Source of the DNA: Bacteroidales bacterium
GTDB lineage: Bacteria > Bacteroidota > Bacteroidia > Bacteroidales > UBA932
Direction of reading: 5' to 3'
Assembly (NCBI GenBank): GCA_017630155.1
Contig: JAGBVU010000005.1
Span: 144,342 to 208,341 of the forward strand
DNA length: 64,000 nucleotides
Below the pieces are notes generated by a model that was not told the origin of the DNA, searched no databases, and saw only the letters and a program-made list of their open reading frames with translations. Both the position numbers and the translations under genes were made by a program. This document shows positions 6,455 to 32,821 of the stretch, in pieces; within the stretch, counting starts at the first letter, position 1; each line of letters begins with the position of its first letter.

Positions 6455-6456
6455 AA

Positions 6457-13133: not shown

Positions 13134-13158
13134 TAATCACCTGAAAAAATAATTTAAT

Positions 13159-15288
13159 ATGCGTCCTAATTTTAAAGATATCAAATATTGCGGAGCAGCC
13201 GCTTGCAAAGCTGAGGCTCCTGCACAGGAAACTTGGAAGACCCCTGAGCAAATCGACGTTAAAGGGATCTACACCGCTGAGGACCTAAATGGTATGGAGC
13301 ATCTGAATTATGCAGCAGGTGTCGCTCCTTTCCTTCGTGGACCTTACAGCACAATGTATGTACAAAAACCTTGGACTGTTCGTCAGTACGCAGGTTTCTC
13401 TACAGCTGAAGAGTCAAACGCTTTCTACCGCAGAAACTTGGCTGCCGGTCAGAAAGGTCTTTCTGTAGCATTTGACTTGGCTACACACCGTGGATACGAT
13501 GCTGACCACCCAAGGGTAGTTGGTGACGTAGGTAAAGCTGGTGTAAGTATCTGTAGCGTTGAGGATATGAAGGTTCTTTTCGACCAGATTCCTCTAAACA
13601 AAATGTCAGTTTCTATGACTATGAACGGTGCCGTTCTTCCTGTTATGGCATTCTACATCGTAGCAGGTCTTGAGCAAGGTGCCAAACTTGAAGAGATGGC
13701 TGGTACTATCCAGAACGACATCTTGAAAGAGTTCATGGTTCGTAACACTTACATCTATCCACCTGAGTTCTCAATGAGAATTATCGGCGATATCTTCGCT
13801 TATACTTCTAAATATATGCCTAAGTTCAACTCTATCTCTATCTCTGGTTACCACATGCAGGAAGCAGGTGCTACCAACGATATCGAGATGGCTTACACTT
13901 TGGCAGACGGTCTTGAGTATCTCCGTACTGGTGTTAAAGCCGGTATCGATGTAGATGCTTTCGCACCTCGTCTATCATTCTTCTGGGCTATCGGTATGAA
14001 CCACTTTATGGAGATTGCCAAGATGCGTGCTGCACGTATGATCTGGGCAAAACTTGTAAAACAGTTCAATCCTAAGAACCCTAAATCTCTATCACTAAGA
14101 ACACACTGCCAGACTTCAGGTTGGTCACTAACTGAGCAGGATCCTTTCAACAACGTAGCTCGTACTTGTATCGAGGCTATGGGTGCTGCACTTGGTCACA
14201 CTCAGTCACTTCACACCAACGCTCTTGATGAGGCTATCGCACTTCCTACCGACTTCTCAGCACGTATCGCACGTAACACCCAGATCTACATCCAGGAGGA
14301 GACCAACGTATGCCGTGGTATCGACCCTTGGGCTGGTTCATACTATGTAGAGACCCTTACCAAAGAACTTGCTGATAAAGCTTGGAAACTTATCCAGGAG
14401 GTTGAAGAACTTGGTGGTATGGCTAAAGCTATCGAGACAGGTATTCCTAAACTTCGTATCGAAGAGGCTGCTGCCCGTAAACAGGCTCGTATCGACTCAG
14501 GTATTGAGAAGATCATCGGTCTTAACGAGTACAGACTTGAGAAAGAGGATCCTATCGAGATCTTGGCAGTGGACAACACTAAAGTTCGTGAATCTCAGGT
14601 TAAGAGACTTCAGGAGCTTCGTGCTAACCGTGACAATGCAAAAGTTAAAGAGTGTCTTGCAGCTATCACTCACGCAGTGGAGACTAAGACCGGTAACCTT
14701 CTTGAGCTTGCTGTTGAGGCTGCTAAGAACAGAGCTACCCTTGGTGAAATCTCTGACGCTTGCGAAGCTGTAGTAGGCAGATATAAAGCAGTTATCCGTA
14801 TGAATACAGGTGTTTACTCATCAGAAGTTAAGAACGATTCAGAGTTCGAACAAGCTAAAGTTAAAGTAGCTGAATTCGCTAAGAAAGAGGGTCGTCAACC
14901 TCGTATCATGATCGCTAAACTTGGTCAGGACGGTCACGACCGTGGTGCTAAAGTGGTAGCTACCGGTTATGCTGACTGCGGTTTCGACGTGGATATGGGT
15001 CCTCTATTCCAGACTCCAGAAGAGGCTGCTAAACAGGCTGTTGAGAACGACGTACACGTAGTGGGTGTATCTTCACTTGCTGCTGGTCACTTGACACTTG
15101 TTCCTCAGATCGTTGCTGAGCTTGCTAAACTTGGCCGTGAAGACATCCTTGTAGTTTGTGGTGGTGTAATCCCTGCACAGGACTACGATGCACTTTACAA
15201 AGCCGGTGCAGCTGCTATCTTCGGTCCTGGTACAAAAGTAGCTTTGGCTGCTTCTACTATCGTTGACCTTTTGTCACAGAGATTCTAA
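13159..15288 (+). CDS. mutB: Methylmalonyl-CoA mutase large (alpha) subunit
   Basis: 709 aa with [10 protein letters not shown] and RQYAGFST motifs and the C-terminal B12-binding [11 protein letters not shown] (DxHxxG) motif. Confidence 0.95.
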
Positions 15289-15316
15289 TCTGATTAAGAT
15301 AGAATATAATAAAGTA

Positions 15317-15349
15317 AGAGGCCTTCAAATCTGAAGGCCTCTTTTTTAT
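15317..15349. terminator. Bidirectional hairpin terminator between convergent mutB and the nine-gene operon
   Basis: Stem agaggccttca / tgaaggcctct with A/T runs on both sides. Confidence 0.7.
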
Positions 15350-15351: not shown

Positions 15352-16644
15352 TTATATATTCTTGACAGCTTTTACTATCTCTTCTGCAGGGAGATCAGGG
15401 TCAAGGACCAGATGTGGTTTGGCGTAGACTATGTTCTGCTCTGATTTGGCAAGTTCTTCTCCGCCACCTGTTATATTGAGCATAATCACGTCTTCTTTGG
15501 ATACTTTCCCCTCTTTGACTGCAGCTGCAAGTGAGGCAACAGCGACAGCAGCAGCGTTGTGGATGTCGATACCCTCAAGTTCTGCAAACCTGGCTTTCCA
15601 CTGGTGAAGTTCATCGTTGGTCACTTTGAACATGTCACCGCCGGCGTCTTCCATAGCATCAAAAAGGCCACCTGCGATAGAGTAAGGCGGTTTCCTGTTG
15701 GAAAGGACCTTGGCATCTATCACTGCAGCAGCATTGCGTGCCTGATCGGGAGTCATATCGACCAGTTGTCTTGAATGGAGTTTCCACGAATCGTACATGA
15801 TGGTGAAAGGGTCGTTCTGTGAAGGGTAGAGTTTCATTTTGTGTGTGCCCCAACGGCCGTCTTCGATAAGTCTGAGGTTGTTCTCCCAGGCGGCAATGGT
15901 ACCTGTGCCGCTGCCGATGGCCTGGAAATATGCATCTGGTATCCTTCCGATAACCTCTACGGCAGAGAGGAGGGTAGTACCCATACCGTCACGACGTGCC
16001 ACATTCTTGGCACCACCTTCTGCCATAAAATCAGGATCTGTACACACTTTATCGGCAAGTGCTATGGCATCAAAATAGTCTGAACCTTTTGGGGAGGCTA
16101 TTATTTTAACACATTCATTGAGAGGCTCTGTGAACCAAAGGGCATTGATGTTGTCCTCAGGGATAGATATCAGGAGTGGGATGTTGTTCTCGGAGCACAC
16201 TTTGGCGAAGGCTCTCGCAGTGTTTCCTGCGGATGCCACTACCAGGGTCTTTTTGTTGTCGGCAGAGAGTCTTCCGCAGACAGAGTAGGCCTCTGTCTCC
16301 TTGAAGGAGCCGGTGGACATTCTTGCCCCCATCTTTGGCCACCAACCGGAGAAGGTGATATATAGATTCTCAAGTCCGAGTTCGGATGCAAGTGCAGTGC
16401 TTTTGTATGTCACAGGGGCGCATGAGCCTTTCAATGTCCTGCGTACAGGGAGCCAGCCTGCATATCTGTATAGCCCCTCAAGATCCTCTCGGGGTGTGTA
16501 TTGTTTCTCTTCATATTCTGCCTTTATGAGGCTTGGCTTTTCGCAATCGGGGTCTGCAAGAGACCATCCGGTATCTTCAAATTTATGTTTGTCTGCGAAG
16601 CAGACGAGTGTGTATCCGGTGGCTTTGAGTTCCATATCTTTCAA
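15352..16644 (-). CDS. Threonine-synthase-fold PLP enzyme, probable cysteate synthase
   Basis: Fold-type II PLP lysine motif (STGSFKETE) and a Gly-rich PLP loop (GSGTGT). The N-terminus does not look like canonical ThrC. The cysteate synthase call rests on family resemblance plus operon context and was not verified by HMM. Confidence 0.55.
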   Translation of the reverse strand: MKDMELKATGYTLVCFADKHKFEDTGWSLADPDCEKPSLIKAEYEEKQYTPREDLEGLYRYAGWLPVRRTLKGSCAPVTYKSTALASELGLENLYITFSGWWPKMGARMSTGSFKETEAYSVCGRLSADNKKTLVVASAGNTARAFAKVCSENNIPLLISIPEDNINALWFTEPLNECVKIIASPKGSDYFDAIALADKVCTDPDFMAEGGAKNVARRDGMGTTLLSAVEVIGRIPDAYFQAIGSGTGTIAAWENNLRLIEDGRWGTHKMKLYPSQNDPFTIMYDSWKLHSRQLVDMTPDQARNAAAVIDAKVLSNRKPPYSIAGGLFDAMEDAGGDMFKVTNDELHQWKARFAELEGIDIHNAAAVAVASLAAAVKEGKVSKEDVIMLNITGGGEELAKSEQNIVYAKPHLVLDPDLPAEEIVKAVKNI

Positions 16645-16650
16645 GTAGTT

Positions 16651-18462
16651 TTATTTCTTTTCAATTGATTGCAAGGCGACTTCTGCAATGTCGATTACAG
16701 GGATTGCCGAGTGCCTTTTGAATGTGTTTTTACAGAGTGGGCAGGCTGTCACTATGGCGTCGGGAGAGGCCACGGTGAGGTTGTTGAGTGCATTCTCTAT
16801 CAGCCTTTTCCTCTGTTCATCCCCCAGACTGAGGCTGCCGAGGCTACCGCCGCAACATATGCTCTCAGCTCCGTTCTTTGTCCCCTCGAGCAGTTCACCT
16901 GCAGCACGGATTATATCTCTTGGCTCCTCATATATACCGCACCCCCTTCCGAGCTCGCAAGGGTCGTGGTATGCAAATTTAATATCAGATTTTGATATAT
17001 CAATCCTCTTTTCAGAGATAAGTCTCTTGATATATTCGGTATGGTGCAGGATCTCTATACCCTCAAGTTTGTAGTTCTCTTTGAATATCCGGTAGCAGAT
17101 GGGACAACTCAATAGAAGGGTGGTGGCCCCTGATGCCATTATTATACTGGTGTTTTTCTCTATCATCTGCTGTGCTGCATCGCGGCGTCCGGCCATAAGC
17201 ATTGGCCTTCCGCAGCATATACCACCATTTTCGTCCATTATGGTGTAATCTTCCCCGGCTTTCTCCAAAATAGAGACAAGGGATCTCTTTATCGCTGGGG
17301 TGAGGTGTGTCATGCACCCGGCAAAATAGAGAATCTTGCCGCTTCCCTGAGGGATAAACTGCTTCCCGTCTATCGATGAGTAATCGGGTGTGAGATTATA
17401 TTTCCTAGTAGAACGCTGTGCTATCCTGAGTTTATCCCCCTCAACCCCTACAGGGCATACGGATGAGCATTTTCCGCAGAGGAGGCATTTGTCGCTTATC
17501 TGGTCGATTCTCTTTTTGTTGTTGCGTTTCAACTGCCTGTTGAGGTAGACTGTGGCATCCTTGATATTGGCCTTGGCTGCACTCAGAGGGCAGGCATCAA
17601 TGCACACACCGCAGCCCGGGCAAGAGTAGACTTGCAGTCTCGAAATTCCTTTGCGGGAGTATCTGATGGGGATACCTGCATTGCGCATAGGGATTAGGAG
17701 TATCTCAGCCGGGATGTGCATATATCTGCTGAAAGGGAGAATGAACATGAATACACCCAGTGCAATCGAGTATGCCCACCACACGGGGAGTGCCTGTGTA
17801 GGGTCGCTGTAGAATGAGTGGAGCAGGTGATTGAGTGTCTTGGTGAGGAAAGATCCGCCGCTTATATCAGCGGTGAACCCCTCTGCCAGGAGTCTCAGCG
17901 GGAAGATGCTCCACAATGAGTATAGTCCGATGAGGTCGGTGAGGCTTGGTCTGGTGGTCCTTCTCATCCCGAAAAGTAGGGAGTATGCCCTTTTGAGCAT
18001 AGCCAGAATGATTCCGCTAAGAATCATAAGGAGGAAGAAGTCCATCAGGAAGAAGAAGAATGATCCCGACATTGTGTGGTCTGTCACCGCGACGAAGTAT
18101 CTGAAGAATATAGGGTACCATATACGGTGAATCCTTTCTGGAGTATACAGGAATACCTCTATGTGACCTACCACTATTATCATGAACCATCCGAATGCGA
18201 TGCTGGAGTGCATATAGCCCAGGAGTTTGTTCCTCTTCCATAGTTTGACGTGGAAAAGGCAGTCACAGAACCACTCCTTGATATTTTTGGCCATTATCCT
18301 GGGGTTGATCAGGGAGAGGAAGAATTTTTTTCTGTCCCCAGGGGTCAGTTCGTATATCACCCTTATTGCCCCTCCGATGCACCAGACCAGGACAAAGGTC
18401 ATCCCCAGGACAAAGGGCATGATGAAGCTATTGAATCCCGACGGGTGAAGATAATCTACCAT
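16651..18462 (-). CDS. Membrane-anchored Fe-S oxidoreductase: NarI/DsrM/HdrE-like heme-b membrane domain fused to an HdrD/DsrK-like module
   Basis: N-terminal ~260 aa has about 6 TM helices with conserved His residues and the NarI-type motif PFSRYMHIP. This is followed by two CxxCxxCxxxCP ferredoxin motifs (CPGCGVCIDACP, CLLCGKCSSVCP) and two complete CCG domains (ICCGRP...SCPICY; ICCGGS...ACPLCK). Confidence 0.75.
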   Translation of the reverse strand: MVDYLHPSGFNSFIMPFVLGMTFVLVWCIGGAIRVIYELTPGDRKKFFLSLINPRIMAKNIKEWFCDCLFHVKLWKRNKLLGYMHSSIAFGWFMIIVVGHIEVFLYTPERIHRIWYPIFFRYFVAVTDHTMSGSFFFFLMDFFLLMILSGIILAMLKRAYSLLFGMRRTTRPSLTDLIGLYSLWSIFPLRLLAEGFTADISGGSFLTKTLNHLLHSFYSDPTQALPVWWAYSIALGVFMFILPFSRYMHIPAEILLIPMRNAGIPIRYSRKGISRLQVYSCPGCGVCIDACPLSAAKANIKDATVYLNRQLKRNNKKRIDQISDKCLLCGKCSSVCPVGVEGDKLRIAQRSTRKYNLTPDYSSIDGKQFIPQGSGKILYFAGCMTHLTPAIKRSLVSILEKAGEDYTIMDENGGICCGRPMLMAGRRDAAQQMIEKNTSIIMASGATTLLLSCPICYRIFKENYKLEGIEILHHTEYIKRLISEKRIDISKSDIKFAYHDPCELGRGCGIYEEPRDIIRAAGELLEGTKNGAESICCGGSLGSLSLGDEQRKRLIENALNNLTVASPDAIVTACPLCKNTFKRHSAIPVIDIAEVALQSIEKK

Positions 18463-18776
18463 AACTTGCTTATATTAAGGATTATACTGCGGGTATTTAT
18501 TCCGCGTGGGCACACCATTGTGCATTTCCCGCACAACATGCAGGCTGAGAGCATCTTGCGGACCTCCTCATTTCTTCCCCTCTGGAGGTTAAGGAGCACC
18601 TTCCTTACACTCATCCCGGTGTATCCGGCAGCTGTGCATGTAGCACTGCAGGAGCCGCACGCCATGCATCGGAGTGCATCGGGTTCGACCTCGGTAAGCT
18701 TGTTAAAAAATGTCCTGTCCACCTGATCCAAATTTATTGCGGAGCTGGGTGAAAGGGAAAATCCAAATTTATTCAT
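18456..18776 (-). CDS. Small 2x[4Fe-4S]-type ferredoxin-like protein
   Basis: 106 aa with CMACGSCSATC and CMLCGKCTMVCP. It overlaps both neighbours by 7-8 nt. Confidence 0.7.
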   Translation of the reverse strand: MNKFGFSLSPSSAINLDQVDRTFFNKLTEVEPDALRCMACGSCSATCTAAGYTGMSVRKVLLNLQRGRNEEVRKMLSACMLCGKCTMVCPRGINTRSIILNISKLW

Positions 18777-19794
18777 CTCTCTTGCCCCTTATTTGATAAT
18801 CAATCTCCAAAGCAGCAGAGCGTGCCTCTGCCAATGTCTCCGGGACCGTTTTGGGTCCGGTGCAGGCACCTGCATAGAAAACACCACCCCTTGGGGAGGA
18901 TGTTATGTCAGAGATATTGTTTGCACTCTGGAGGAAGTGGTCTGAATCGGTGGGGAGTGATATCATCGATGCCAGTTTGGTGCTGTCAGGGTTGCAAAGC
19001 ATGCCCGACATCAGGACAAGCAGGTCCAATGTCACCTTGATGGGTTTCCCCAGGAGTGTATCTTCTGCCTTGATTACCACCTTGCCATCTATATTCTCGC
19101 TCACCTCAGAGACCCTTCCTCTGATGAAATGGATCCCGTGATCCCTTTGGGCTTTGGTGTAGAAGTCCTCGAACTTCTTTCCGAAGAGTCTCAGGTCCAT
19201 ATAGAAGCAGTATATGTCTGCATTGGGGTGCATCTCTTTGAGTTCAATAGCCTGTTTGATGGCGGTGATGCAGCACACTTTTGAGCACTGTCCATTGCCG
19301 GCCTTCTCGTCACGGGATCCGACGCAGTGGACAAATCCCACTTTCTCCCTGGATGATTTGTCTATCCTATCATCTTTCGCACCATTGAACCATCTCTCCA
19401 GGTCGGAGTTTGTGATGACGTGGTTGTAGATGCCGTATCCGTACTCCTCTTTGCGGGAGGCTTCAAACATCTTGAACCCGGTGGTCATCAGTATATATTT
19501 GGTGTTGATGGTCACACCGTTGGAGAGGATTATGTTGTAACTGTCCCTCAGACGGTTCACCTGTGATATCTCTGTGTTGAGAAAGATGTTGGCCCCTTTG
19601 CTGTCGGCTGTAAGACGGTCAATGAGATCTTTGGCCGGAGTGAGGTCCGGGAAGAGCCTGTTCCACTCTGCCACATGGCCGCCAAGGTGGTCACTTTTCT
19701 CTATTATGATAGGGGTGTGGCCCATCCTGATGAGCTGCTTAGCAGCCTCCATACCAGCGATGCCACCACCTACTATTACTATTATATCCTTCAT
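18769..19794 (-). CDS. HdrA-like FAD-dependent Fe-S flavoprotein (short, sHdrA-sized)
   Basis: Dinucleotide fold GGGIAGMEAA. Exact HdrA cluster signature CxGxRDx7CSxxCC (CVGSRDEKAGNGQCSKVCC). Confidence 0.8.
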   Translation of the reverse strand: MKDIIVIVGGGIAGMEAAKQLIRMGHTPIIIEKSDHLGGHVAEWNRLFPDLTPAKDLIDRLTADSKGANIFLNTEISQVNRLRDSYNIILSNGVTINTKYILMTTGFKMFEASRKEEYGYGIYNHVITNSDLERWFNGAKDDRIDKSSREKVGFVHCVGSRDEKAGNGQCSKVCCITAIKQAIELKEMHPNADIYCFYMDLRLFGKKFEDFYTKAQRDHGIHFIRGRVSEVSENIDGKVVIKAEDTLLGKPIKVTLDLLVLMSGMLCNPDSTKLASMISLPTDSDHFLQSANNISDITSSPRGGVFYAGACTGPKTVPETLAEARSAALEIDYQIRGKRDE

Positions 19795-19806
19795 ATTCAG
19801 ATCTTT

Positions 19807-20877
19807 TTAGAAGCATTTGATCCCAGATGGGAGCTCTGGCTTCATTATGTCTTTGCTGTTGAGCCCCTTGTATTTTTCTTCAGGACTGTATTCTATCCCT
19901 ATCTTGTCCAGTAGTGGCTCCACTGCCACCTGATGGAGCTGGAGACCTAAGTCCCATGGGTCATAGCCCAATACCAGCCCAGCTACCTCTTCATATGTGA
20001 AGACAGGTATTCCGAAGCCGTTCTGGCCGTATGTTTTCCCCTCCATCTCAGCTATAACATATTGCCATCTGTCGAGGAAGTATGGGCATCCGGGACAATT
20101 GGTGATAATCATGTCGGGTTTGTACGGGGCCATCGACTCGAATTTCTTGTGGGTATTTGAGAGGGAGTAGCCCCTGTTGGCCTTGACGTGGTATTGTCTG
20201 AATCCGTAGCCGCAGCAGTGCCTCCTCTCGGGGTAGTCGATAATATTGCCGCCCCATGACTCTATCATACCTGTCAGGACGTATGGGTACTCAGCCCCAC
20301 CCACACCCTTTGAAGGGAACATCTTCGAGTAGTGGCAGCCTATGTGTTCCACCACGCGGAGAGGTTCTCCGGTCTCTTTGTTGACAAGGTGAAATTTTGC
20401 CTTCTCTGCTATCTCGTTGCGGAACTTGAATATAAGGTCGCTCGAGTGGGCGAGGTATTTGGGCTTCTTGAACTCCTTGCGGCAAGATTTCCAAAGCATC
20501 TCCCTTATCTTGGCTTCCAGCTCGGGGAACTCGTGCCAGGTCTCAAGTATTTCAGTGTAGTTTCCAAATGAGGTGATGCAAGAGGCGACATAGTTCTCAT
20601 AACCCGCCTCAGTCATCAGAGCGAACTGCCTGGCCACTATGGTCATAGCGGTCTCCTGCGGAATGGTGTCGCAGTGGTATGCTATACCTCCACAGGTGGT
20701 GTGGTGTTCATTTTCATATATATCCTTACCAAGGACATTCCTGCAAATCTCCATAAACATCTTCTCCGAAGCGGGGAAGAAATTCTGGCGGATACAGCTC
20801 CGTACATAGTACCAGTTGTCGTCAGGAATCTCCTTCTGGTAGTCGCTCCATATTTTCTGTTTCCCTTGATAAATCAT
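19807..20877 (-). CDS. HdrB-like CCG-domain protein
   Basis: C-terminal CCG domain (GCHYS...HCCGYG...NCPGC) and a degenerate N-terminal copy (TCGG). Confidence 0.75.
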   Translation of the reverse strand: MIYQGKQKIWSDYQKEIPDDNWYYVRSCIRQNFFPASEKMFMEICRNVLGKDIYENEHHTTCGGIAYHCDTIPQETAMTIVARQFALMTEAGYENYVASCITSFGNYTEILETWHEFPELEAKIREMLWKSCRKEFKKPKYLAHSSDLIFKFRNEIAEKAKFHLVNKETGEPLRVVEHIGCHYSKMFPSKGVGGAEYPYVLTGMIESWGGNIIDYPERRHCCGYGFRQYHVKANRGYSLSNTHKKFESMAPYKPDMIITNCPGCPYFLDRWQYVIAEMEGKTYGQNGFGIPVFTYEEVAGLVLGYDPWDLGLQLHQVAVEPLLDKIGIEYSPEEKYKGLNSKDIMKPELPSGIKCF

Positions 20878-20879
20878 AC

Positions 20880-21578
20880 TCAGTCGTTGTTGAAATGCTC
20901 ATTTGAGCAGTGTTCGAATGTGTGTCTGAAGTACTCTTCCATATCCATCCCCATCTCCTCTGCCTTGGCCCTTGAATATCTCTCCACGCACTCCATCCTC
21001 TCGGTGGCCCCTGTGATGTCAAAAATTTTCTTGAGTTCGTCGAGGGACTCCTGTGGTATATCCCTCAATGCCCCCGGACCGGTGCCGTGGAAATTGGCCC
21101 CTTGTCTTGCGTAGCTCTCCTCAAGGTGTTCGGTGTGCCATTTCCATACAGGGCCCGACTCCACATGGTCCTCCCATTTGAAGGTGTCGGGGTGGATGCA
21201 GTAGCCGTATTTGAGGATATTGCCGGTCATTATTTTTGTAAGGGGGTAGAGTTGTCTCCCCTTTTCAGACTCCACGAAGTATCCCAATCTTGCAGAGAGG
21301 TCCCGCAGTGCCATAATGACTAGCCCTGGACCATTCTTCCTCGGGCATCTGGTAAGGCAAGAGAGGCACTCTCCGCAATACCAGATAGTGTCACTTTTCA
21401 GCAGTTTCTCTATCTCCCCGTCATCGCCCCTCTGGATAGTGTCGACTATCTTGCGGGGATCATACTTGTAGAACTCTGCAGCAGGGCAAATGGCCGTGCA
21501 GGTCCCGCAGTTGATGCAGGTCTTCAGACCCTCCTTTATCCTGTAATCCTCTTTTAACAGATCGTATAGTTTTCCCAT
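20880..21578 (-). CDS. HdrC-like 4Fe-4S dicluster protein
   Basis: CINCGTCTAICP and CGECLSCLTRCP motifs. Its size and its position upstream of the HdrB-like gene match HdrC. Confidence 0.75.
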   Translation of the reverse strand: MGKLYDLLKEDYRIKEGLKTCINCGTCTAICPAAEFYKYDPRKIVDTIQRGDDGEIEKLLKSDTIWYCGECLSCLTRCPRKNGPGLVIMALRDLSARLGYFVESEKGRQLYPLTKIMTGNILKYGYCIHPDTFKWEDHVESGPVWKWHTEHLEESYARQGANFHGTGPGALRDIPQESLDELKKIFDITGATERMECVERYSRAKAEEMGMDMEEYFRHTFEHCSNEHFNND

Positions 21579-21587
21579 AATTACCCT

Positions 21588-22373
21588 TTACATAGGTTTG
21601 ATTTTGCGTGCTAGACGGGCACAAACTCCAGGGAGGAACCTTTTGATATGGACCATCAGCAGCTCCTTTCTCCCCACAAGCACCTCACGGCGCCCTTTGG
21701 CGATGGCACGTACAATAATCTGTGCAGCCCTCTCAGCGCTCATTCCACCTTTCTGCCCTGGGTCAAGCACTCCGTGGGGTTTCCCACCCTTGTCAAGTGC
21801 ATAGAGGGATATATTTGTCTGAACCCTCCCCGGACACACGATGGTGACGCCGATTCCGGCATTGTAATACTCTGCTTGCAGCGTCTCGAAAAAGCCGTAG
21901 AGAGCAAATTTGGAGGAGCTGTATCCGCAGCGCAATGGGAAGCCGAAGCGTCCCGCAATAGATGTGGTTACCGCTATTTTGCCCCCTCCACGCTCCACCA
22001 TCCTGGGGAGAATTGCCTTGGCAATGGCTACAGGGGCAAAATAATTGACCTCCATAATCTTGCGAACCATCTCCATAGAGGTATCCTCCACATTGGTCCT
22101 CTGGCTGATCCCTGCATTGAGCATGACAATGTCAATCCCCCCGACAGCATCCCAAGCATTGGCAGTAAGCTCCTCTATCCCCTCGGGATTGCCGAGTTCG
22201 TAGGGGAGGACCACCACCTCAGGTGCTCCGAGGGAGCGGCACTTTTGCGCTACTGGCTCCAGCCTTTCAGCTGAAGAGGAGGTGAGGACAAGCCTCGCCC
22301 CCTCAGCTGCATATTTGCAGGCGCACGCTGCCCCGATTCCGGAGGATGCGCCTGTAATCCAAACAGATGACAT
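21588..22373 (-). CDS. Short-chain dehydrogenase/reductase (candidate 3-keto reductase of the sulfonolipid/sphingoid pathway)
   Basis: TGASSGIG cofactor motif, NAG, and catalytic YSSSK. Confidence 0.85.
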   Translation of the reverse strand: MSSVWITGASSGIGAACACKYAAEGARLVLTSSSAERLEPVAQKCRSLGAPEVVVLPYELGNPEGIEELTANAWDAVGGIDIVMLNAGISQRTNVEDTSMEMVRKIMEVNYFAPVAIAKAILPRMVERGGGKIAVTTSIAGRFGFPLRCGYSSSKFALYGFFETLQAEYYNAGIGVTIVCPGRVQTNISLYALDKGGKPHGVLDPGQKGGMSAERAAQIIVRAIAKGRREVLVGRKELLMVHIKRFLPGVCARLARKIKPM

Positions 22374-22376
22374 GTC

Positions 22377-23642
22377 TTATTTCAATAGTGCCATATTAGG
22401 CATCTCTTTGTCAAATTCGCCGCGGTCAAGTCTCTCTTTGATGTCGCGGAATGCTGCCAGTGTCCTCTCCACATCCTCCATGCTGTGTGCAGCGGTAGGG
22501 ATGATACGGAAGATTACCATTCCCGGAGGAATTACAGGGTAGATAACTACTGAGCAGAAGATGTGGTACTCCTCGCGAAGAGCTACCGCAATGTTGGAAG
22601 CCTGGTTTACACCCGCTTTCACGTGAACCGGGGTAACGCAAGCCTCAGCAGGTCCTATGTCGAAGCCCATCTCGCGGAAACCCTCCTGAAGACGTCTTGT
22701 CACTTTCCATAGTTTGGCGCGAAGCTCATCACCCTCAGGGCTGTTGATAATCTCAAGTCTCCTCAAGCAACCCTCTACGATAGGCATAGGGAGTGACTTG
22801 GCGTAGATCTGTGAACGCATATTGTATTTGAGATAGTCGATGATATCCCTGTCAGAAGCGACAAAACCTCCGATGATGGCCATCGATTTGGCGTAGGCAC
22901 CGATGTAGATGTCGATCTCATCCATCACACCGAAATGTTCTGATGTACCGCGGCCGTTAGGACCCATTACACCGAAACCGTGGGCATCGTCGATCATGAT
23001 GCGGAAGTTGTATTTCTTCTTCAGGGCAGCTATCTGGTCCAGGATACCGAGGGCACCTGTCATGCCGAATACACCCTCAGTGATAAGTAGTACGCCGCCA
23101 CCATTCTTGTCGGCCTCAGCGCAAGCTTTGGCAAGTACGCGGTCGCAATCCTTGATATCGTTGTGGCGGAATTTGTATTTGCTGCCGATGTGGAGACGGA
23201 TACCGTCAAGAAGGCAAGCGTGGTCCTCTGCATCGTATACGATAACATCGTGACGCCCTACAAGTGCGTCGATGGTCGATACAATACCCTGATAACCGAA
23301 GTTGAACTCAAATGCGGCCTCTTTCTTCTCGAACTCAGCCAGACGGCGTTCGAGCTCTTCGTGAAGGTGAGTCTGGCCGGTCATCATACGGCTACCCATA
23401 GGGTAGGCAAGACCCCAGCGTGCAGCTGCTTCAGCGTCGATTTTGCGGATCTCGGGGTGGTTGGCCAGACCGAGATAGTTGTTGAGACTCCAGCAAAGGA
23501 CATCCTGTCCGTTGAACTTCATATAAGGGCCCAATTCACCCTCAAGTCTTGGAAATGCGAAATAACCTTCAGCTTTCTCACGGTATTGGCCGATAGGGCC
23601 ACCTGTAGATTTTCTTATTCTGTCAAAAATGTCAAGTTGCAT
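22377..23642 (-). CDS. Alpha-oxoamine synthase family PLP enzyme (serine palmitoyltransferase / cysteate-fatty-acyltransferase-like)
   Basis: AONS/KBL/SPT family pattern (NNYLGLANHP, DDAHGFG, PLP-Lys in AYAKSM). Substrate (serine versus cysteate) cannot be read from the sequence alone. Confidence 0.8.
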   Translation of the reverse strand: MQLDIFDRIRKSTGGPIGQYREKAEGYFAFPRLEGELGPYMKFNGQDVLCWSLNNYLGLANHPEIRKIDAEAAARWGLAYPMGSRMMTGQTHLHEELERRLAEFEKKEAAFEFNFGYQGIVSTIDALVGRHDVIVYDAEDHACLLDGIRLHIGSKYKFRHNDIKDCDRVLAKACAEADKNGGGVLLITEGVFGMTGALGILDQIAALKKKYNFRIMIDDAHGFGVMGPNGRGTSEHFGVMDEIDIYIGAYAKSMAIIGGFVASDRDIIDYLKYNMRSQIYAKSLPMPIVEGCLRRLEIINSPEGDELRAKLWKVTRRLQEGFREMGFDIGPAEACVTPVHVKAGVNQASNIAVALREEYHIFCSVVIYPVIPPGMVIFRIIPTAAHSMEDVERTLAAFRDIKERLDRGEFDKEMPNMALLK

Positions 23643-23657
23643 AGCTATATGTTTTAT

Positions 23658-24737
23658 TTATTTTACTTTTTCTCTTGATACAAGCCCCATCATCCTGAAA
23701 AGGAATTTAGGGAGCGATTTTTTAGGGTCCCTCTTTTTCATATCGATAAACCATCCGAGTTTTTTGGCCACAGGGACCTTGTGTGTCTCCACAAACTCTA
23801 TAAGTGTGCCGTCAGGATCCTCGATGTAGGTGAAGTGACCCGATGCATCACCCATGTCAAATTGCTCTCCGCCGGGGCAGCTGTCCACTGTGAAAGGGTG
23901 CCCTTTCTCTGCACAGAATTTGCCCAGAGCCTTCATCCCTGTAACATCGAAGCATATCTGGATAAAGCCGGGATCTCCCCAGTAACGACCCTCGTATATC
24001 TTTCGGGGTGTACGTTCCAGTGCCTGGACAAGTTCTATGGTAGAACCTCCGAAGAGTGCGGCAAAAGCACCCTCCCGCTGAGGAGCTTCAAGGATAACAC
24101 GGCGGCACTGTTTGTCAGCCGAGGGGAGGAAGTAGTTTTTACTGAATCTCCCTGTAGTATCGCTCTTAATGGTGGTGTAGCCGAGGACCTCACTATAGAA
24201 ACGGATGGAGGCCTCCATATTTGTCACACCTACCACAGCACCGATCATACCCCCGGTGAGTTTGCCCTCATCGATGAAGACATCGGGGCGTTCCACTATC
24301 TGGAACCAGTTGCCGTAAAGGTCTTTGACATAGAAGCAAGGGGTGCCGTCTGGCAATGTTTCAGGGGTGCTGCAATCTTTCCATTTGGTGGAGATCTCCT
24401 TGTAGAAAGCCTCCACATCGCGGCATTTGAGTTTTGCTGCGAGGACACCCAGATCACCAACCTCTATAGTGAATGGACAAGGTTGGGGTTCCCTTTTTGA
24501 GTATTGCCATATCTCAAAACCGCCGCCGCCCTGAAGGTTTACGGCGATGCAGGCGTGGCGCTGCTGGGGCTGTCCGCCAGTGTAGGGGAGCATCCTCTCC
24601 GCCACTGTATCGTCTTCCAGTATCCTGATATCGACTCCAAACATGTCAATGTACCAGTTCCACGACTTTCTGAAATCGACGGTACCGACACCTATCTGCT
24701 GGATTCCCGAAATCATAAATGACTCCATAATGTTCAA
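23658..24737 (-). CDS. Two-domain VOC (glyoxalase/dioxygenase) superfamily protein
   Basis: Two tandem beta-alpha-beta-beta-beta VOC-like halves (GIQQIGVGTVDF...; GAVVGVTNMEASIRFY...). First gene of the nine-gene operon. Confidence 0.65.
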   Translation of the reverse strand: MNIMESFMISGIQQIGVGTVDFRKSWNWYIDMFGVDIRILEDDTVAERMLPYTGGQPQQRHACIAVNLQGGGGFEIWQYSKREPQPCPFTIEVGDLGVLAAKLKCRDVEAFYKEISTKWKDCSTPETLPDGTPCFYVKDLYGNWFQIVERPDVFIDEGKLTGGMIGAVVGVTNMEASIRFYSEVLGYTTIKSDTTGRFSKNYFLPSADKQCRRVILEAPQREGAFAALFGGSTIELVQALERTPRKIYEGRYWGDPGFIQICFDVTGMKALGKFCAEKGHPFTVDSCPGGEQFDMGDASGHFTYIEDPDGTLIEFVETHKVPVAKKLGWFIDMKKRDPKKSLPKFLFRMMGLVSREKVK

Positions 24738-24802: not shown

Positions 24803-24810
24803 CAAATGTA
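24803..24810 (-). promoter_or_regulatory. -7 box TACATTTG (minus strand) for the nine-gene operon
   Basis: Reverse complement of caaatgta, 66 nt upstream of the VOC start codon. Confidence 0.45.
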
Positions 24811-24866: not shown

Positions 24867-24996
24867 GTCGCGACTTCGGAGTTAAGGTTCTTCAGGCGTT
24901 CGCTCCGCTCACTCCCACCACGCCTTACGGCGCGGTCCCCCCGCTATCAAGCGCGTGTGCTTAGGCCTTCAGAACCTTAATCTCCACAGCCGCGAC
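24867..24996. repeat. ~130 bp palindromic (MITE/REP-like) element, copy 1
   Basis: Termini gtcgcgacttcggagttaaggttcttcag ... cttcagaaccttaatctccacagccgcgac pair with each other. The whole element is the reverse complement of 48505..48629, roughly 85-90 percent identical by eye. Confidence 0.85.
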
Positions 24997-25034
24997 AGAA
25001 AAACGCCGAAAGCTGTCATAGGGAGTTCAGCGAT

Positions 25035-25150
25035 CTACACACATGCAAGAAATCAGGCAAAAACTTGCAGGTGTGTAGTAAAAGTCGTCGGAAACTGAGG
25101 TGATTCGGGACACACATGCAAGAAATCTGGCGAAAACTCGTAGGTGTGTG
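25035..25150. repeat. Two tandem ~44 bp hairpin units, 74 bp apart
   Basis: ctacacacatgcaagaaatcaggcaaaaacttgcaggtgtgtag and cacacatgcaagaaatctggcgaaaactcgtaggtgtgtg. Each folds as acacac(a)tgcaag / cttgca(g)gtgtgt. Confidence 0.75.
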
Positions 25151-25234
25151 GTGAAATGTACAGCGACGCACGGGAAATGCCCGATATCTGCTGCGTCAGG
25201 TGGGGGATGACTTATTTTGACTGCTTGACAGGCT

Positions 25235-27238: not shown

Positions 27239-28156
27239 CTATTTTATTTTATATGGTGGCCTTTTTCTCCACACCACATAGCTGGTGTTTTTAGGGAGTC
27301 CTCTACGACCTTTGAGGATATTTTCGTCTCCGAATTTGTGATGGGTCCCATCTTCTGAGACTGCCCATCCGAAAGCATTGGATCCCACCAGATAGATGGC
27401 ATTGTCCACCCCGAGATCCACCAATACCTGTGCAAAGTCGTGGAATGATTCCTGGGTAAGGCTCTCCACTACGAGAATCTCCCCTTTGCGGTCGCAGATG
27501 GCTCTGCGGATGCTTTTACCTTTGGGCTCGTTATCGACCAATAGGCCATTATCTACAAGTGGATATTGCCTGAAGAAATATCCCCCTTTAGCTGTCGATT
27601 CTTCGAACAGAGGTGTGTTCTCGGCCACCCCGATGGAAATTTTGTCATCTATTATTGCGCAGTAGCCACGTTTGGCAAGTCCCCTTGACTTCTGTTCACC
27701 CTTCAAAACAAATGCACCGACAATACCGCCATTGTCTGCACGGACATCTGCAGCCTGTGCAGCAAAAATTATCTCAGGGTCGCTTTTGTCCAGCTTCCCT
27801 AGATGGAGGGTCATCTGCGCATTGTGCGGGATATAGATCCTTAGGGGAATATCATTGATGGTGGTGTCCACTATCTCTGTAAATCCAGCAGCAGTGGAAT
27901 CAATCTCGGAACCGATCCACCCTTTGTCCACCGGCTCCGAAGTAATATATGCCACCTCAGGCTCGAATAGGGCAGGCTCCGGTTCGTAGAGGGTACTTTG
28001 CCTGATTTTTACCAGTACAACGATGAGTATTCCCAGCACAATGATGATTATTGCTGAAATAAGGTATCTCTTCAAATTTGAAGATGGCACCCATTTGGAT
28101 TTGGTGTAGCCTATCACACGTATTTGGTCATCCCTTATATCGTCAAACTCTTTCAT
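27239..28156 (-). CDS. Membrane-anchored protein, possibly phosphodiester glycosidase (DUF2233/NAGPA-like)
   Basis: One TM helix, then a domain whose C-terminal part (VDLGVDNAIYLVGSNAFGW) resembles the LDGGGS region of that family. Confident it is coding; the function call is weak. Confidence 0.5.
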   Translation of the reverse strand: MKEFDDIRDDQIRVIGYTKSKWVPSSNLKRYLISAIIIIVLGILIVVLVKIRQSTLYEPEPALFEPEVAYITSEPVDKGWIGSEIDSTAAGFTEIVDTTINDIPLRIYIPHNAQMTLHLGKLDKSDPEIIFAAQAADVRADNGGIVGAFVLKGEQKSRGLAKRGYCAIIDDKISIGVAENTPLFEESTAKGGYFFRQYPLVDNGLLVDNEPKGKSIRRAICDRKGEILVVESLTQESFHDFAQVLVDLGVDNAIYLVGSNAFGWAVSEDGTHHKFGDENILKGRRGLPKNTSYVVWRKRPPYKIK

Positions 28157-28157
28157 A

Positions 28158-28532
28158 CTATTTGATATCTTCCTCCAAAAGCTCCTTCAACTGCTTGAGT
28201 GCCTCTTTCGATGCCGATACCGAGTGGCTGAATGTGGCATTGTCCGAAAGTATAAGTTTCTGCTTCTGCACATTGATGTAGTAGATGTAGGAGCGATTGA
28301 TAATTAAACTTTTACCGATGCGGATGAATGTATTCCTTTCTGAACCCAACTGTTCGGACATGATCTTCTCGATCTGCCCGAGCTGGAAAGTGAGGACACG
28401 TGTCTCACCATCACTCTGGACTATTGTGGAATAGTTTCCATCCGATGCCACATAAACCACCCGCTCCGGTGCTATTCTCACCAGATCCACTGAGGTTGAT
28501 ATGACAATGTGTTTTTTCATCTTTAATTTCAA
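28158..28532 (-). CDS. Stand-alone LytTR DNA-binding domain protein
   Basis: 124 aa with the LytTR pattern (IAPERVVYVASDGNYSTIV...FIRIGKSLIINRSYI). Its stop is 1 nt from the next gene's start. Confidence 0.8.
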   Translation of the reverse strand: MKLKMKKHIVISTSVDLVRIAPERVVYVASDGNYSTIVQSDGETRVLTFQLGQIEKIMSEQLGSERNTFIRIGKSLIINRSYIYYINVQKQKLILSDNATFSHSVSASKEALKQLKELLEEDIK

Positions 28533-28580
28533 GCAAATTTAAAAATCATTTAACCAAGGAGCAAGGGCGTGAGCTTGCAA

Positions 28581-28611
28581 TGTATGAAATGTGTGGCTGG
28601 ATGTATGAAAT
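28581..28611 (-). promoter_or_regulatory. Two perfect 10 bp direct repeats (minus strand ATTTCATACA) at 21 bp spacing upstream of the LytTR gene
   Basis: tgtatgaaat at 28581-28590 and at 28602-28611. The proximal copy overlaps a near-consensus -7 box (TACATTGC). Confidence 0.5.
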
Positions 28612-28619
28612 TAATGAAA

Positions 28620-32744: not shown

Positions 32745-32821
32745 TTACAAATATTTTATTTAGATTTTAGCTGAATACGCCACCACAATTACCGCATTGA
32801 CTCTATTGTCAATGTGCTATA

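Follow-up and report, generated by a model that had tools for sequence, protein, structure and literature searches.

Organisation of the nine-gene cluster

Nine ORFs on the minus strand of the window (the whole 64,000-nt stretch of DNA analysed, from an uncultured gut Rikenellaceae bacterium) extend from 24737 to 15352. In order of transcription, they predict a VOC-family protein, an alpha-oxoamine synthase (AONS) family enzyme, a short-chain dehydrogenase (SDR), HdrC-like, HdrB-like and HdrA-like proteins, a ferredoxin, a membrane protein with Fe-S and CCG domains, and a cysteate synthase. The successive spacings are 15, 3, 9, 2, 12, -8, -7 and 6 nt, reproducing the coordinates and the layout of 2-15 nt gaps and 7-8 nt overlaps given in an earlier sequence-only reading. 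The motifs quoted there (CVGSRDEKAGNGQCSKVCC, PFSRYMHIP, the CCG triplets and CxxCxxCxxxCP) were also verified.

A putative Bacteroidetes-type -7 promoter box, TACATTTG, lies on the minus strand at 24803..24810, ~70 nt before the start of the first gene, and is the only intergenic TAnnTTTG on that strand upstream of the cluster. The proposal of a single promoter box holds for this upstream region but not for the cluster interior, where four copies of TAAATTTG are found on the minus strand inside genes (16578, 16974, 18729 and 18764). A bidirectional intrinsic-terminator hairpin with a 12-bp stem (15316..15343) is located just past the last gene, and no comparable hairpin occurs within the nine genes. 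This hairpin is common to the cluster and a convergent methylmalonyl-CoA mutase gene. The nine genes are best explained as a single transcription unit. The arrangement is not due to chance: all nine are found in this order in 13 loci of other species, where the flanks differ.

Predicted enzymes of the sulfonolipid pathway

The last gene (15352..16644, minus strand) predicts a PLP enzyme that would form L-cysteate from O-phosphoserine and sulfite. The product scores 455.9 bits against TIGR03844 (curated cut-off 324.9) and 556 bits against PDB 9k3c, 'Cysteate synthase', but ≤47 bits against threonine synthase structures. Threonine synthase was rejected as an identity, since ThrC models give ≤61 bits and the cysteate synthase model is passed. 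The enzyme is thus well identified, at the level of sequence, as a cysteate synthase, as had been proposed.

The AONS gene (22377..23642, minus strand) predicts a cysteate acyltransferase of the SulA/CFAT/CapB type, which would make 3-ketocapnine. Matches to Alistipes finegoldii SulA [PDB 7u7h] and cysteate-C-fatty acyltransferase, CFAT [PDB 28eh], are 542 and 540 bits, respectively, versus 232 bits for serine palmitoyltransferase (SPT), and the protein falls under every NCBIfam SPT/Kbl/BioF cut-off. It retains the Lys of YAKSLPMP (aa 280-287), the equivalent of SulA Lys281 that separates SulA from SPT (Radka et al.). On these scores and this residue an SPT identity was rejected, and the predicted SulA/CFAT-type assignment, which agrees with the earlier one, is a good one.

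The adjacent gene (21588..22373, minus strand) encodes a classical SDR (Pfam adh_short, 2.6e-47) that narrowly exceeds the NF004825 cut-off (215.4 versus 215 bits). Its membership of the family expected for the third capnine step was upheld, but its best PDB matches, to 11beta-HSD1, are generic, and it is from context that it is a candidate 3-ketocapnine reductase. The SDR gene adjoins the AONS gene in 13 loci; in two others, L170 and L171, it has moved downstream.

The first gene (23658..24737, minus strand) predicts a two-module VOC/glyoxalase-family protein (Pfam Glyoxalase, 5e-11) of 359 aa from a TTG codon, though an ATG at 24728 (356 aa) is the more likely start. Every locus in which it occurs has the AONS gene as well. 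No relative was found in the PDB, and comparison with the VOC protein of the sHdr locus L145 indicated that the two are unrelated.

The Hdr-like block

Five genes between the SDR and cysteate synthase genes form an Hdr-like block. The HdrC/sHdrC1-like protein (20880..21578, minus strand) contains two cubane [4Fe-4S] motifs, CxxCxxCxxxCP, at aa 21-32 and 68-79. It scores 79 bits against the HdrC HMM (cut-off 350), and shares 33% identity with sHdrC1 (88 bits; 43 bits to sHdrC2).

The HdrB/sHdrB1-like subunit (19807..20877, minus strand) has one Pfam CCG match, in line with its earlier description, and scores 130 bits against the HdrB HMM (cut-off 450). No other subunit of the block is as well conserved: its identity is 67-69% even in clades where the others share 41-46%. 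It presumably carries the catalytic site. Part of the sHdrB1 cysteine signature is common to both proteins, namely C[TG] for CC and CxTSFGNY for CxxC in the N-domain, together with CCGFGFR. However, the score of the subunit against sHdrB1 (99 bits, 27% identity) is slightly below that against methanogen HdrB (114 bits); methanogen HdrB and sHdrB1 score 48 bits against each other.

The product of the next gene (18769..19794, minus strand) is a short HdrA-like FAD/[4Fe-4S] flavoprotein with the architecture of sHdrA. Residues 5-330 align with residues 4-335 of Hyphomicrobium sHdrA [PDB 6tjr] (190 bits, 29% identity), but alignment to methanogen HdrA was obtained only in two pieces, and none of the ferredoxin domains of HdrA (N-terminal, inserted, C-terminal) is present. 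It bears GGGIAG and an exact CxGxRDx7CSxxCC signature (CVGSRDEKAGNGQCSKVCC, aa 157-175). The block proteins fall well short of every curated HMM cut-off for Hdr, Qmo and Dsr, and no specific chemistry is therefore assigned to them by these models.

A 106-aa 2x[4Fe-4S] ferredoxin (18456..18776, minus strand; Fer4 families, two Cys motifs) is encoded between the HdrA-like and membrane genes in every locus with the block, and presumably links the soluble module electronically to the membrane subunit. It scores ~39 bits to sHdrC1/C2 and by sequence comparison has no similarity to sHdrH, a 291-aa protein without a Pfam domain. The suggested parallel to the hypothetical protein of sHdr operons is accordingly not sustained.

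The 603-aa membrane subunit (16651..18462, minus strand) contains two complete CCG domains, two CxxCxxCxxxCP cubane [4Fe-4S] motifs and PFSRYMHIP at aa 243-251; no Pfam domain was found in its membrane region (aa 1-272). An AlphaFold model (pLDDT 87.7) shows a five-helix domain of the haem-b/menaquinone type joined to an HdrD-like module, and the best PDB fold match, over the whole length, is Mycobacterium smegmatis EtfD [PDB 9ojn] (E 4.6e-20, TM 0.69). His85 and His249 are invariant among homologues and are probable haem b ligands. EtfD, for which menaquinone reduction has been demonstrated, contains a single bis-His haem b (PMC13083937). The subunit had been described as C2 and B2 equivalents fused to a NarI/DsrM-type domain. 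The ferredoxin motifs, two CCG domains and membrane domain are all present, but an EtfD/EMO/HdrDE type fits better, as the match to sHdrB2/C2 is only 34-38 bits, and on the model the proposed quinone link is structurally credible. In EtfD a capping His, in the motif CPHC, renders the corresponding cluster non-catalytic (PMC13083937), whereas the 603-aa protein has CPIC and no capping His.

Relationship to sHdr systems

The proposed parallel to the order hdrC1-hdrB1-hdrA-hyp-hdrC2-hdrB2 is borne out for the first three genes, which resemble C1, B1 and A, but the fourth is not sHdrH and the last subunit is of the EtfD type. The HdrA-like architecture, the sHdrB1 cysteine substitutions and CCGFGFR are sHdr-like features. 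Subunit identities to true sHdr are nevertheless low, at 27-33% (C1 33%, B1 27%, A 29%), and sHdrH, LbpA, TusA/DsrE and EtfAB are missing. In the loci with Pfam listings, no LbpA, lipoate-assembly, TusA, DsrE or rhodanese family was found within ~10 kb, and etfAB was absent from all. A canonical sHdr identity was rejected on these grounds. We know of no in vitro reconstitution of canonical sHdr. The accepted role of the system is the oxidation of sulfane sulfur, with sulfite as the product. The Dahl group finds it always accompanied by sulfur transferases and also by LbpA, and in type II, defined by etfAB, it is proposed to pass electrons via EtfAB and an EMO protein to menaquinone (PMC11094781).

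Conservation and genomic neighbourhood

As far as the contigs extend over the block, its five genes have the same order in 82/82 related Bacteroidales loci. This order is also seen in three distant genomes, each complete or nearly so. Of the 76 loci with sufficient flanking sequence, 53 have cysteate synthase as the next gene downstream, on the same strand and at a spacing of 5-70 nt. The predicted linkage of the two is thus widely conserved; it persists down to ~50% identity of the membrane subunit, and no other functional neighbour is comparably conserved among the related loci. The AONS and SDR genes are upstream of the block, away from cysteate synthase, which places the block inside the pathway in two clades and the L170 variant. 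In a neighbour-joining tree, adjacency appears as one ancestral state followed by several losses, and hence represents few independent events.

Sulfonolipid loci are not the only setting of the block. Of the 76 loci, 21-22, from gut or rumen, have it on its own, among them L004, which is closely related to the window. It also forms a stand-alone operon in environmental Bacteroidota (Tenuifilaceae, Lentimicrobium and one 6.2-Mb genome). Its function is therefore not exclusive to cysteate synthesis unless the synthase is elsewhere in those genomes. In Alistipes proper, a genus whose sulfonolipid synthesis has been shown by experiment, cysteate synthase is kept but its neighbours are unrelated and no block lies within 10 kb, so that the block may not be required.

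In some lineages the cluster is joined by genes of transporter families that have a link to sulfur oxyanions. The gene after cysteate synthase encodes SulP in 8 loci, and L170/L171 have a distant relative of the YeiH-family 'putative sulfate exporter'. The SulP neighbour is ambiguous evidence, as its best score is to DauA, a dicarboxylate carrier.

Proposed function and alternatives

The reading we consider best, though tentatively and as something short of probable, is that the nine genes make capnine with their own sulfur donor, the block oxidising reduced sulfur to sulfite. The proposal is built on gene order, enzyme families, cofactor motifs, the fold and the conserved adjacency. Cysteate synthase would condense O-phosphoserine with sulfite, the SulA/CFAT-type enzyme would couple cysteate to an acyl chain, and the SDR would probably reduce the 3-keto group to give capnine, the sulfonolipid base; the VOC protein may also have a part. 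The five block genes would specify one membrane-bound redox complex, comprising an HdrC/HdrB/short-HdrA module of sHdr design, the ferredoxin and the EtfD/HdrDE-like subunit. The host being a strict anaerobe, this complex may form sulfite in its cytoplasm by oxidising reduced sulfur at the sulfane or persulfide level. Electrons would reach menaquinone via the Fe-S clusters and a single haem b and be drained by fumarate respiration, and the toxic sulfite would be captured at once by cysteate synthase. From textbook potentials, the sulfite/S0 couple (~-40 mV) and menaquinone (~-74 mV) are close, so by our estimate the step would be roughly isoenergetic and could be drawn forward by fumarate reduction and by the removal of sulfite.

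The stand-alone occurrences, the unaccompanied Alistipes synthase, the few independent events in the tree and the wide failure of the curated HMMs to assign any chemistry all suit a general menaquinone-linked thiol/disulfide or electron-transfer complex with a housekeeping or energy role, adjacency then reflecting inherited order or shared regulation. We regard this as rather unlikely, given that the close same-strand adjacency outlasts divergence of the membrane subunit while other flanks change, that upstream AONS and SDR genes enclose the block within the pathway, and that sulfite is the sole unusual substrate of cysteate synthase, the closest characterised relatives of the soluble module being sulfur enzymes. 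The adjacency is accounted for equally well if sulfite were released reductively, in the direction customary for heterodisulfide reductases, menaquinol and/or reduced ferredoxin serving to split thiosulfate, S-sulfocysteine or another thiosulfonate at its S-S bond into sulfite and sulfide or a thiol. Noncubane-cluster CCG sites of HdrB/HdrD cleave S-S bonds (PMC13083937), and the membrane subunit has both CCG motifs complete with no capping His. A soluble substrate would need no sulfur-carrier genes, and none were seen; the SulP and YeiH-family neighbours make oxyanion import possible. However, we estimate E0' of thiosulfate cleavage to sulfite and sulfide at ~-400 mV, far under menaquinol, so that ferredoxin or membrane potential would be needed, and the cluster encodes no ferredoxin-reducing partner. 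With an HdrB-like cysteine pattern that indicates the oxidative family, and an sHdrA-type flavoprotein lacking the ferredoxin domains used by bifurcating HdrA, reductive release seems distinctly improbable.

A catabolic direction is very improbable indeed. Here the cysteate synthase homologue would free sulfite from cysteate, and the complex would use that sulfite as a respiratory acceptor, with menaquinol as the reductant. PLP fold-type II enzymes can eliminate beta-substituents, the complex is quinone-linked by its EtfD fold match, and gut bacteria such as Bilophila reportedly respire cysteate-derived sulfite (PMC11193023). Yet the operon includes a SulA-type acyltransferase that would consume cysteate, the PLP enzyme exceeds the equivalog cut-off of TIGR03844, no sirohaem sulfite reductase or DsrC-like gene was found nearby, and we know of no Hdr-type enzyme that reduces sulfite.

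No previous description of an Hdr-like block linked to sulfonolipid or cysteate synthesis was found in the literature. If the sulfite-supplying role is correct, this apparently undescribed linkage would mean that the capnine genes carry a built-in source of sulfite.

Arrangement of the operon and its flanks

The nine genes lie on the minus strand between positions 24737 and 15352, where the sequence-only reading had placed them, and their coordinates were confirmed. They encode, in the direction of transcription, a VOC protein, an AONS-family acyltransferase, an SDR, HdrC-like, HdrB-like and HdrA-like proteins, a ferredoxin, a membrane protein and a cysteate synthase, and are separated by 15, 3, 9, 2, 12, -8, -7 and 6 nt. 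The five genes from that for the HdrC-like protein to that for the 603 aa membrane subunit (21578-16651) are referred to as the block. A Bacteroidetes-type -7 box, TACATTTG (24803-24810), is found in the only intergenic stretch upstream. Four further matches to TAAATTTG are located within coding regions on the same strand, and the earlier description of the promoter box as single therefore applies to intergenic sites only. The only strong hairpin terminator (15316-15343; 12-bp stem) is 3′ of the last gene, and is common to the operon and the convergent methylmalonyl-CoA mutase gene. A promoter scan based on sigma-70 carries no meaning in Bacteroidetes, and only its terminator calls were used.

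No riboswitch or other known RNA family in Rfam matched the 500-nt leader or the window as a whole. The leader includes two 47-nt direct repeats (25037-25083 and 25110-25156) that are 87% identical, each with an internal ACACAC...GTGTGT palindrome, and a 16-nt inverted repeat (24882-24897 and 24965-24980) is present between these and the -7 box. The repeat region (24880-25160) has no Rfam family match, and the repeats could be binding sites for a regulator. A MarR gene flanks the block in approximately 10 related loci.

Convergent with the operon are genes for the small and large subunits of methylmalonyl-CoA mutase (11217-15288, plus strand), beyond which is a tyrosine recombinase gene of the Phage_integrase family (8698-9621, minus strand). 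A stretch from approximately 28000 to 47400 has a low GC content (0.36-0.40, compared with 0.45-0.51 around it) and all of its genes are on the minus strand. Their products include a UvrD-like helicase, a DUF1848 protein, a Fic protein, a YhcG PDDEXK nuclease, a 1167 aa protein with a papain-like protease domain and a 913 aa Tubulin_2-like protein, and the stretch resembles a defence or mobile island that has been acquired. Proteins of the window are 96-99% identical to those of the human-gut MAG Rikenellaceae bacterium HGM05605 (locus L003).

Enzymes of sulfonolipid synthesis

The product of the last gene scores 455.9 bits against TIGR03844, for which the curated equivalog cut-off is 324.9, and 60.8 bits against ThrC, the best of the threonine-synthase models. 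It matches PDB 9k3c ("Cysteate synthase") at 556 bits and threonine synthases at no more than 47 bits. The acyltransferase encoded by the second gene scores 542 bits with A. finegoldii SulA (7u7h) and 540 bits with a cysteate-C-fatty acyltransferase (28eh), compared with 232 bits at most for serine palmitoyltransferases (SPTs), and reaches 295 bits with the SPT HMM NF047600 (cut-off 640). It retains the lysine in YAKSLPMP (aa 280-287) that tells SulA from SPT (Radka et al.). The PLP enzyme with a threonine-synthase fold is thus a cysteate synthase, and the AONS-family enzyme is a cysteate acyltransferase of the SulA/CFAT/CapB type, not an SPT. Grouping of the former with threonine synthases, or of the latter with serine-specific SPTs, had been named in advance as evidence against the pathway and, given these scores, neither occurred.

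The SDR gene adjoins the acyltransferase gene. Its product is a classical SDR with generic PDB and NCBIfam matches, and its position makes it a candidate 3-ketocapnine reductase (KCR/CapC). Two of the three capnine steps originally predicted for the operon are borne out by enzyme family, and the third is suggested by position. The first gene predicts a two-module VOC protein that has no informative relatives and was found solely in loci that carry the acyltransferase gene.

Relative to the CapA-CapB-CapC (Cys-CFAT/SulA-KCR) pathway, the cysteate synthase and acyltransferase of the window are clear members and the SDR gene is beside the acyltransferase gene, whereas in A. finegoldii and C. gleum the validated KCR genes are reportedly dispersed and outside any cluster with cfat and Cys (PMC11211663). 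The surroundings of the cysteate synthase gene also differ. The 9k3c enzyme is identical to an Alistipes-type protein, and in the Alistipes lineage the gene has unrelated neighbours, being located between Orn/DAP-decarboxylase-family and TonB-dependent receptor genes with a saccharopine dehydrogenase gene farther upstream, whereas in the window it adjoins the block. No Hdr block was found within 10 kb of 9k3c-type or Alistipes cysteate synthase genes.

The soluble Hdr-like proteins

The HdrC-like protein (232 aa) contains two cubane-cluster motifs, the HdrB-like protein (356 aa) has one Pfam CCG match, and the HdrA-like protein (341 aa) includes GGGIAG and CxGxRDx7CSxxCC motifs. The 106 aa ferredoxin is of the 2x[4Fe-4S] type, with two CxxCxxCxxxC motifs. 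Scores for the curated Hdr, Qmo and Dsr HMMs were all well below cut-off, at 79 of 350 bits for HdrC, 130 of 450 for HdrB, 246 of 1100 for HdrA, 50 of 300 for QmoC and 50.9 of 400 for DsrK. The N-terminal, inserted and C-terminal ferredoxin domains are absent from the HdrA-like protein, which matches Hyphomicrobium sHdrA (6tjr; 190 bits) along its entire length but methanogen HdrA only in two pieces.

An sHdrA query rebuilt from the 6tjr alignment brought in 80 true sHdr loci. One of these, L145, has the order sHdrC1, VOC, sHdrB1, LysE, sHdrA, sHdrH (291 aa, no Pfam domain), sHdrC2 and sHdrB2. The HdrC-like protein is more similar to its sHdrC1 (88 bits, 33% identity) than to sHdrC2 (43 bits), the HdrB-like protein is more similar to sHdrB1 (99 bits, 27% identity) than to sHdrB2 (47 bits), and the HdrA-like protein and sHdrA are 29% identical. 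The sequence-only reading had set the operon in parallel with the sHdr order, taking the small ferredoxin as the counterpart of "hyp" (sHdrH) and the last block protein as fused equivalents of C2 and B2. The C-B-A order and domain content, together with the preference for C1 over C2 and for B1 over B2, are compatible with the first half of this parallel, but the identities of 27-33% are low and the HdrB-like protein scores higher (114 bits) with methanogen HdrB. The second half does not hold. The ferredoxin shares no similarity with sHdrH of L145, and the membrane subunit scores 38 bits with sHdrC2 and 34 bits with sHdrB2 and has the fold of EtfD instead; both identifications were rejected.

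The VOC gene of L145 was also considered as a parallel to that of the window and rejected, as VOC genes are present in only 3 of the 80 sHdr loci and are unrelated in sequence. The L145 gene (4396-4956) predicts a 186 aa glyoxalase/VOC protein and is located between shdrC1 and shdrB1, as are the VOC genes of L092 and L156, and a LysE-type exporter gene (6348-6986) separates shdrB1 and shdrA in L145. These three VOC-bearing clusters are proteobacterial.

In alignment, the HdrB-like protein shares with sHdrB1 the changes of CC to C[TG] and of CxxC to CxTSFGNY in the N-domain and the motif CCGFGFR. It is without the extra CxxC that sHdrB1 has at the first position, and retains a C-terminal CPGC (methanogen-type CPxC) where sHdrB1 has DTGC. 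As it scores 114 bits with methanogen HdrB and 99 bits with sHdrB1, and these two score 48 bits with each other, the HdrB-like protein appears to be intermediate between them.

The membrane subunit

In the membrane subunit, a membrane domain is combined with two cubane motifs and two CCG domains, both complete, and the soluble part is recognised by Pfam Fer4 families and two CCG stretches. The membrane domain had been described as a quinone-interacting domain of the NarI/DsrM type. This assignment is unconfirmed by sequence, since Pfam gave no match to the domain alone (aa 1-272) at E values up to 10. An AlphaFold model built with 60 homologues (pLDDT 87.7) has five long helices followed by an Fe-S/CCG module, and its best PDB fold match is M. 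smegmatis EtfD (9ojn), over the whole length (E 4.6e-20, TM 0.69). NarI was rejected as the closest relative, as the fold search gives the EtfD/EMO/HdrDE family. The modelled fold supports assignment of the subunit to this family, and with it the quinone-interacting part of the earlier description.

The EtfD structure has five transmembrane helices, one haem b with His78 and His241 as ligands and a site for menaquinone, along with two clusters of the cubane type and two CCG domains; its authors regard EtfD, HdrBC and HdrDE as homologues (PMC13083937). The membrane subunit shares the five helices, the two cubane clusters and the two CCG domains, and has two histidines at places similar to those of the haem-b ligands. 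These, His85 and His249, are invariant in 60 sequences of the Bacteroidales family, as are all cluster-ligand cysteines in that family, and a bis-His haem b is predicted at this pair. The two proteins differ in that identity is only ~17%, the disordered C-terminal extension (~30 kDa) of EtfD is missing, and no etfAB partner genes are in or near any block locus; genes for the small ferredoxin and the HdrA-like flavoprotein precede the membrane-subunit gene, where EtfD has its EtfAB donor. Further, the second Cys of both CCG motifs is retained, whereas EtfD has Thr there and its cluster is a linear 3Fe-4S one, and CPIC replaces CPHC, with Ile at the position of the capping His583, in which the subunit resembles HdrD. 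Because of these two features, the cytoplasmic part is HdrD-like and could be catalytic, not a mere wire.

Relationship to known Hdr-type systems

Two sHdr types are set out by Tanabe et al. (2024), type I (shdrC1B1AHC2B2) and type II (shdrC1B1AHB3 and etfAB), and LbpA and sulfur transferases (TusA, DsrE, rhodanese) are described there as constant companions of both. For type II, the cluster of which ends in an EMO gene, the same authors propose that electrons reach menaquinone by an EMO/EtfD-family route. Type II and EMO were compared here by published description, and direct sequence comparison was with sHdrA (6tjr) and L145. The block resembles type II (shdrC1B1AHB3-etfAB-emo) in its C-B-A order, in its short sHdrA-type flavoprotein, in an HdrB that has a single CCG domain that can be recognised and cysteine substitutions like those of sHdrB1, and in a downstream subunit where CCG domains are combined with a ferredoxin module, with a predicted EMO/EtfD-family menaquinone route. 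It differs in having no sHdrH, the position of which is taken by the 106 aa ferredoxin, and no EtfAB, in having one Fe-S/CCG subunit after the flavoprotein, itself the membrane protein, and in identities of 27-33%. The host is a strict anaerobe of the Bacteroidales, and the context is biosynthetic, not dissimilatory. LbpA and the sulfur transferases are not nearby; no LbpA, TusA, DsrE or rhodanese Pfam families were found within 9-10 kb in L001, in the three distant genomes (L085, L086 and L087) or in L170 and L171, and none are among the recurrent neighbours of block loci.

Neither shdrC2B2 nor shdrB3 with etfAB, by which the types are recognised, was found, and etfAB was not found in any locus. 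The block is thus a member of neither sHdr type by the published criteria, and resembles sHdr in layout, most closely type II. The main text of Tanabe et al. (2024) reports 397 sHdr-carrying assemblies from 20 phyla, with Bacteroidota and Bacteroidales unmentioned.

In common with HdrDE of Methanosarcina and DsrMK of organisms that reduce sulfate or oxidise sulfur, the membrane subunit includes a membrane part with a predicted haem b and a cytoplasmic Fe-S/CCG part, an arrangement that connects the quinone or methanophenazine pool to S-S chemistry. However, in the block both parts are fused into one polypeptide, there is one conserved His pair, which suggests one haem, the DsrK HMM is missed, and DsrC, DsrAB and CoM/CoB context are lacking. 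The likeness to methanogen HdrABC is in the HdrB-like protein, which aligns end to end with HdrB of 5odc and 9sfi (104-114 bits) with the C-terminal CCG motif and CPxC intact, and in the retained Fe-S/FAD core of HdrA. Differences from HdrABC are the three HMM cut-offs missed, the absence of ferredoxin and N-terminal domains from the HdrA-like protein, and the loss of two of the five cysteines at the N-terminal cluster site of the HdrB-like protein.

Distribution of the block in Bacteroidales

A scan of species-representative genomes detected at least 566 relatives of the membrane subunit, the best 80 of which are all from Bacteroidales MAGs that derive from the guts of humans, chickens, horses, yaks, goats, deer, sheep and buffalo. 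Full-length relatives are 34-45% identical and form approximately 25 clusters at 50% identity, and close relatives are all from uncultured Bacteroidales. The HdrC-B-A-ferredoxin-membrane order is invariant across the related loci (L001-L082) wherever the contig allows. The HdrB-like protein is the best conserved, retaining 67-69% identity in clades in which that of the other subunits is 41-46%.

Conservation of the adjacency between block and cysteate synthase across Bacteroidota had been left as a point to check and, within L001-L082, the adjacency is retained in most of the loci that could be scored. The cysteate synthase gene is next downstream of the block in 53 loci, at another place within L058, and upstream, between the AONS and SDR genes, in L044; it is absent, leaving the block alone, from 21-22 loci that have at least 1.4 kb of flank, and 6 could not be scored. 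The AONS and SDR genes, block and cysteate synthase gene are found together in 13 loci. On a neighbour-joining tree of the membrane subunit, adjacency to cysteate synthase is present in the deepest gut lineages and has been lost at least 5 times, and the nine-gene layout occurs in two separated clades.

The five genes stand by themselves as an operon, and cysteate synthase is not encoded within 10 kb of them, in the Tenuifilaceae genome CYCD, a Lentimicrobium genome and another genome of 6.2 Mb. Approximately 5 kb upstream of the block, the Tenuifilaceae locus (L085) also encodes (1-2102) a 357 aa Fe-S protein and another HdrA-like protein, which is long (656 aa) and has Fer4 domains. L004, a close relative of the window, carries the block alone between unrelated flanks. 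Its block proteins are near-identical to those of L005, which has the full nine genes, the HdrB-like protein of both being 94% identical to that of the window, and the contrast points to recent rearrangement or mis-assembly. An alternative sulfite-using enzyme was sought 3′ of the block in loci without cysteate synthase, where the genes are unrelated (hydrolase, glycosyltransferase, DUF4923, DUF3467, HerA, aminotransferase) apart from TrpB2-like PLP enzymes in two. These TrpB2-type enzymes (TIGR01415, 587-630 bits), another kind of beta-replacement enzyme, are encoded directly 3′ of the block in L027 (12079-13437, plus strand) and 2 kb from it in the Lentimicrobium locus L086 (13888-15249, minus strand); cysteate synthase is absent from both, and a pair of cases is too small a sample for interpretation.

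A MarR regulator gene upstream of the block is a recurrent neighbour. In eight loci (L053, L060, L061, L066, L074, L075, L081 and L082), a gene for a SulP/STAS permease of ~570 aa immediately follows the cysteate synthase gene. The permease passes the TIGR00815 (sulP) cut-off and is most similar to the dicarboxylate carrier DauA and, as cysteate is an analogue of aspartate, might carry cysteate rather than an inorganic anion. In a widely sampled variant (L170/L171, 12113-15009; also L038, L042 and L045), the cysteate synthase gene is followed by a divergent MarR gene and by one for a 446 aa distant relative of the YeiH family (PF03601, "putative sulfate exporter"). After these in L170/L171 are genes for a 92 aa two-helix membrane protein and the SDR, which has moved from the acyltransferase side to the far end.

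Possible role of the block

The sulfite that cysteate synthase requires is a reactive and toxic oxyanion, and to our knowledge its source in strict anaerobes that live in sulfide, both sulfonolipid-making Bacteroidota and coenzyme-M-making methanogens, has never been explained. Alongside the protein families, cofactor motifs, fold and gene adjacency observed, we propose that the five block proteins would form one complex, in which the sHdrB1-like site may act on reduced sulfur species. Electrons would run by way of HdrC, then the FAD/Fe-S flavoprotein and the small ferredoxin, to the clusters and haem b of the membrane subunit, with menaquinone as their acceptor. Oxidation to sulfite would be about isoenergetic, given potentials of about -40 mV for sulfite/S0 and -74 mV for menaquinone (our own estimate from textbook values), and could be pulled by removal of sulfite by cysteate synthase and re-oxidation of menaquinol by fumarate reductase. 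That the block is an oxidative sulfite generator is a tentative conclusion, to which we give a little less than an even chance.

The main rival is the reverse direction, in which thiosulfate or an S-sulfonate is cleaved reductively to sulfite and sulfide or a thiol. It accounts for the complete, uncapped CCG sites and for the anion transporters, but such cleavage is energetically demanding from menaquinol, and we consider it quite improbable. The block may otherwise be a general quinone-linked redox module with an inherited place beside cysteate synthase, an unlikely reading, though one that gains weight because the adjacency may trace to few events. A catabolic role is scarcely credible.

The comparative-genomic evidence for the association of the block with cysteate synthase is strong, and the chemistry is inferred. 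Full-text literature searches found no description of an Hdr-like complex linked to sulfonolipids, cysteate synthase or Alistipes, in agreement with the sequence-only reading, which was aware of none, and no redox complex tied to the capnine/sulfobacin pathway. What we rate as new is the sHdr-like system in an anabolic context. It is possible, though rather doubtful, that the block represents a third architectural sHdr-like type in gut and rumen Bacteroidales, wired to menaquinone by a fused HdrDE/EtfD-like subunit and serving anabolism, whereby sulfide-level sulfur is converted to sulfite without oxygen for cysteate synthase and the sulfonate head group of sulfonolipids.

If this is true, strict anaerobes would have their first known sulfite generator dedicated to biosynthesis, the sHdr/HdrDE family would extend to another architecture, another phylum and anabolic use, and gut sulfur cycling would gain an anaerobic sulfide-to-sulfite step. 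The operonic link between cysteate synthase and Hdr-like genes provides a concrete, testable candidate for the sulfite source of anaerobes. Sulfonolipids made by Rikenellaceae of the gut have been linked with TLR4 signalling and with inflammatory bowel disease (PMC11525784), and sulfite supply could therefore matter for host-relevant lipid output.
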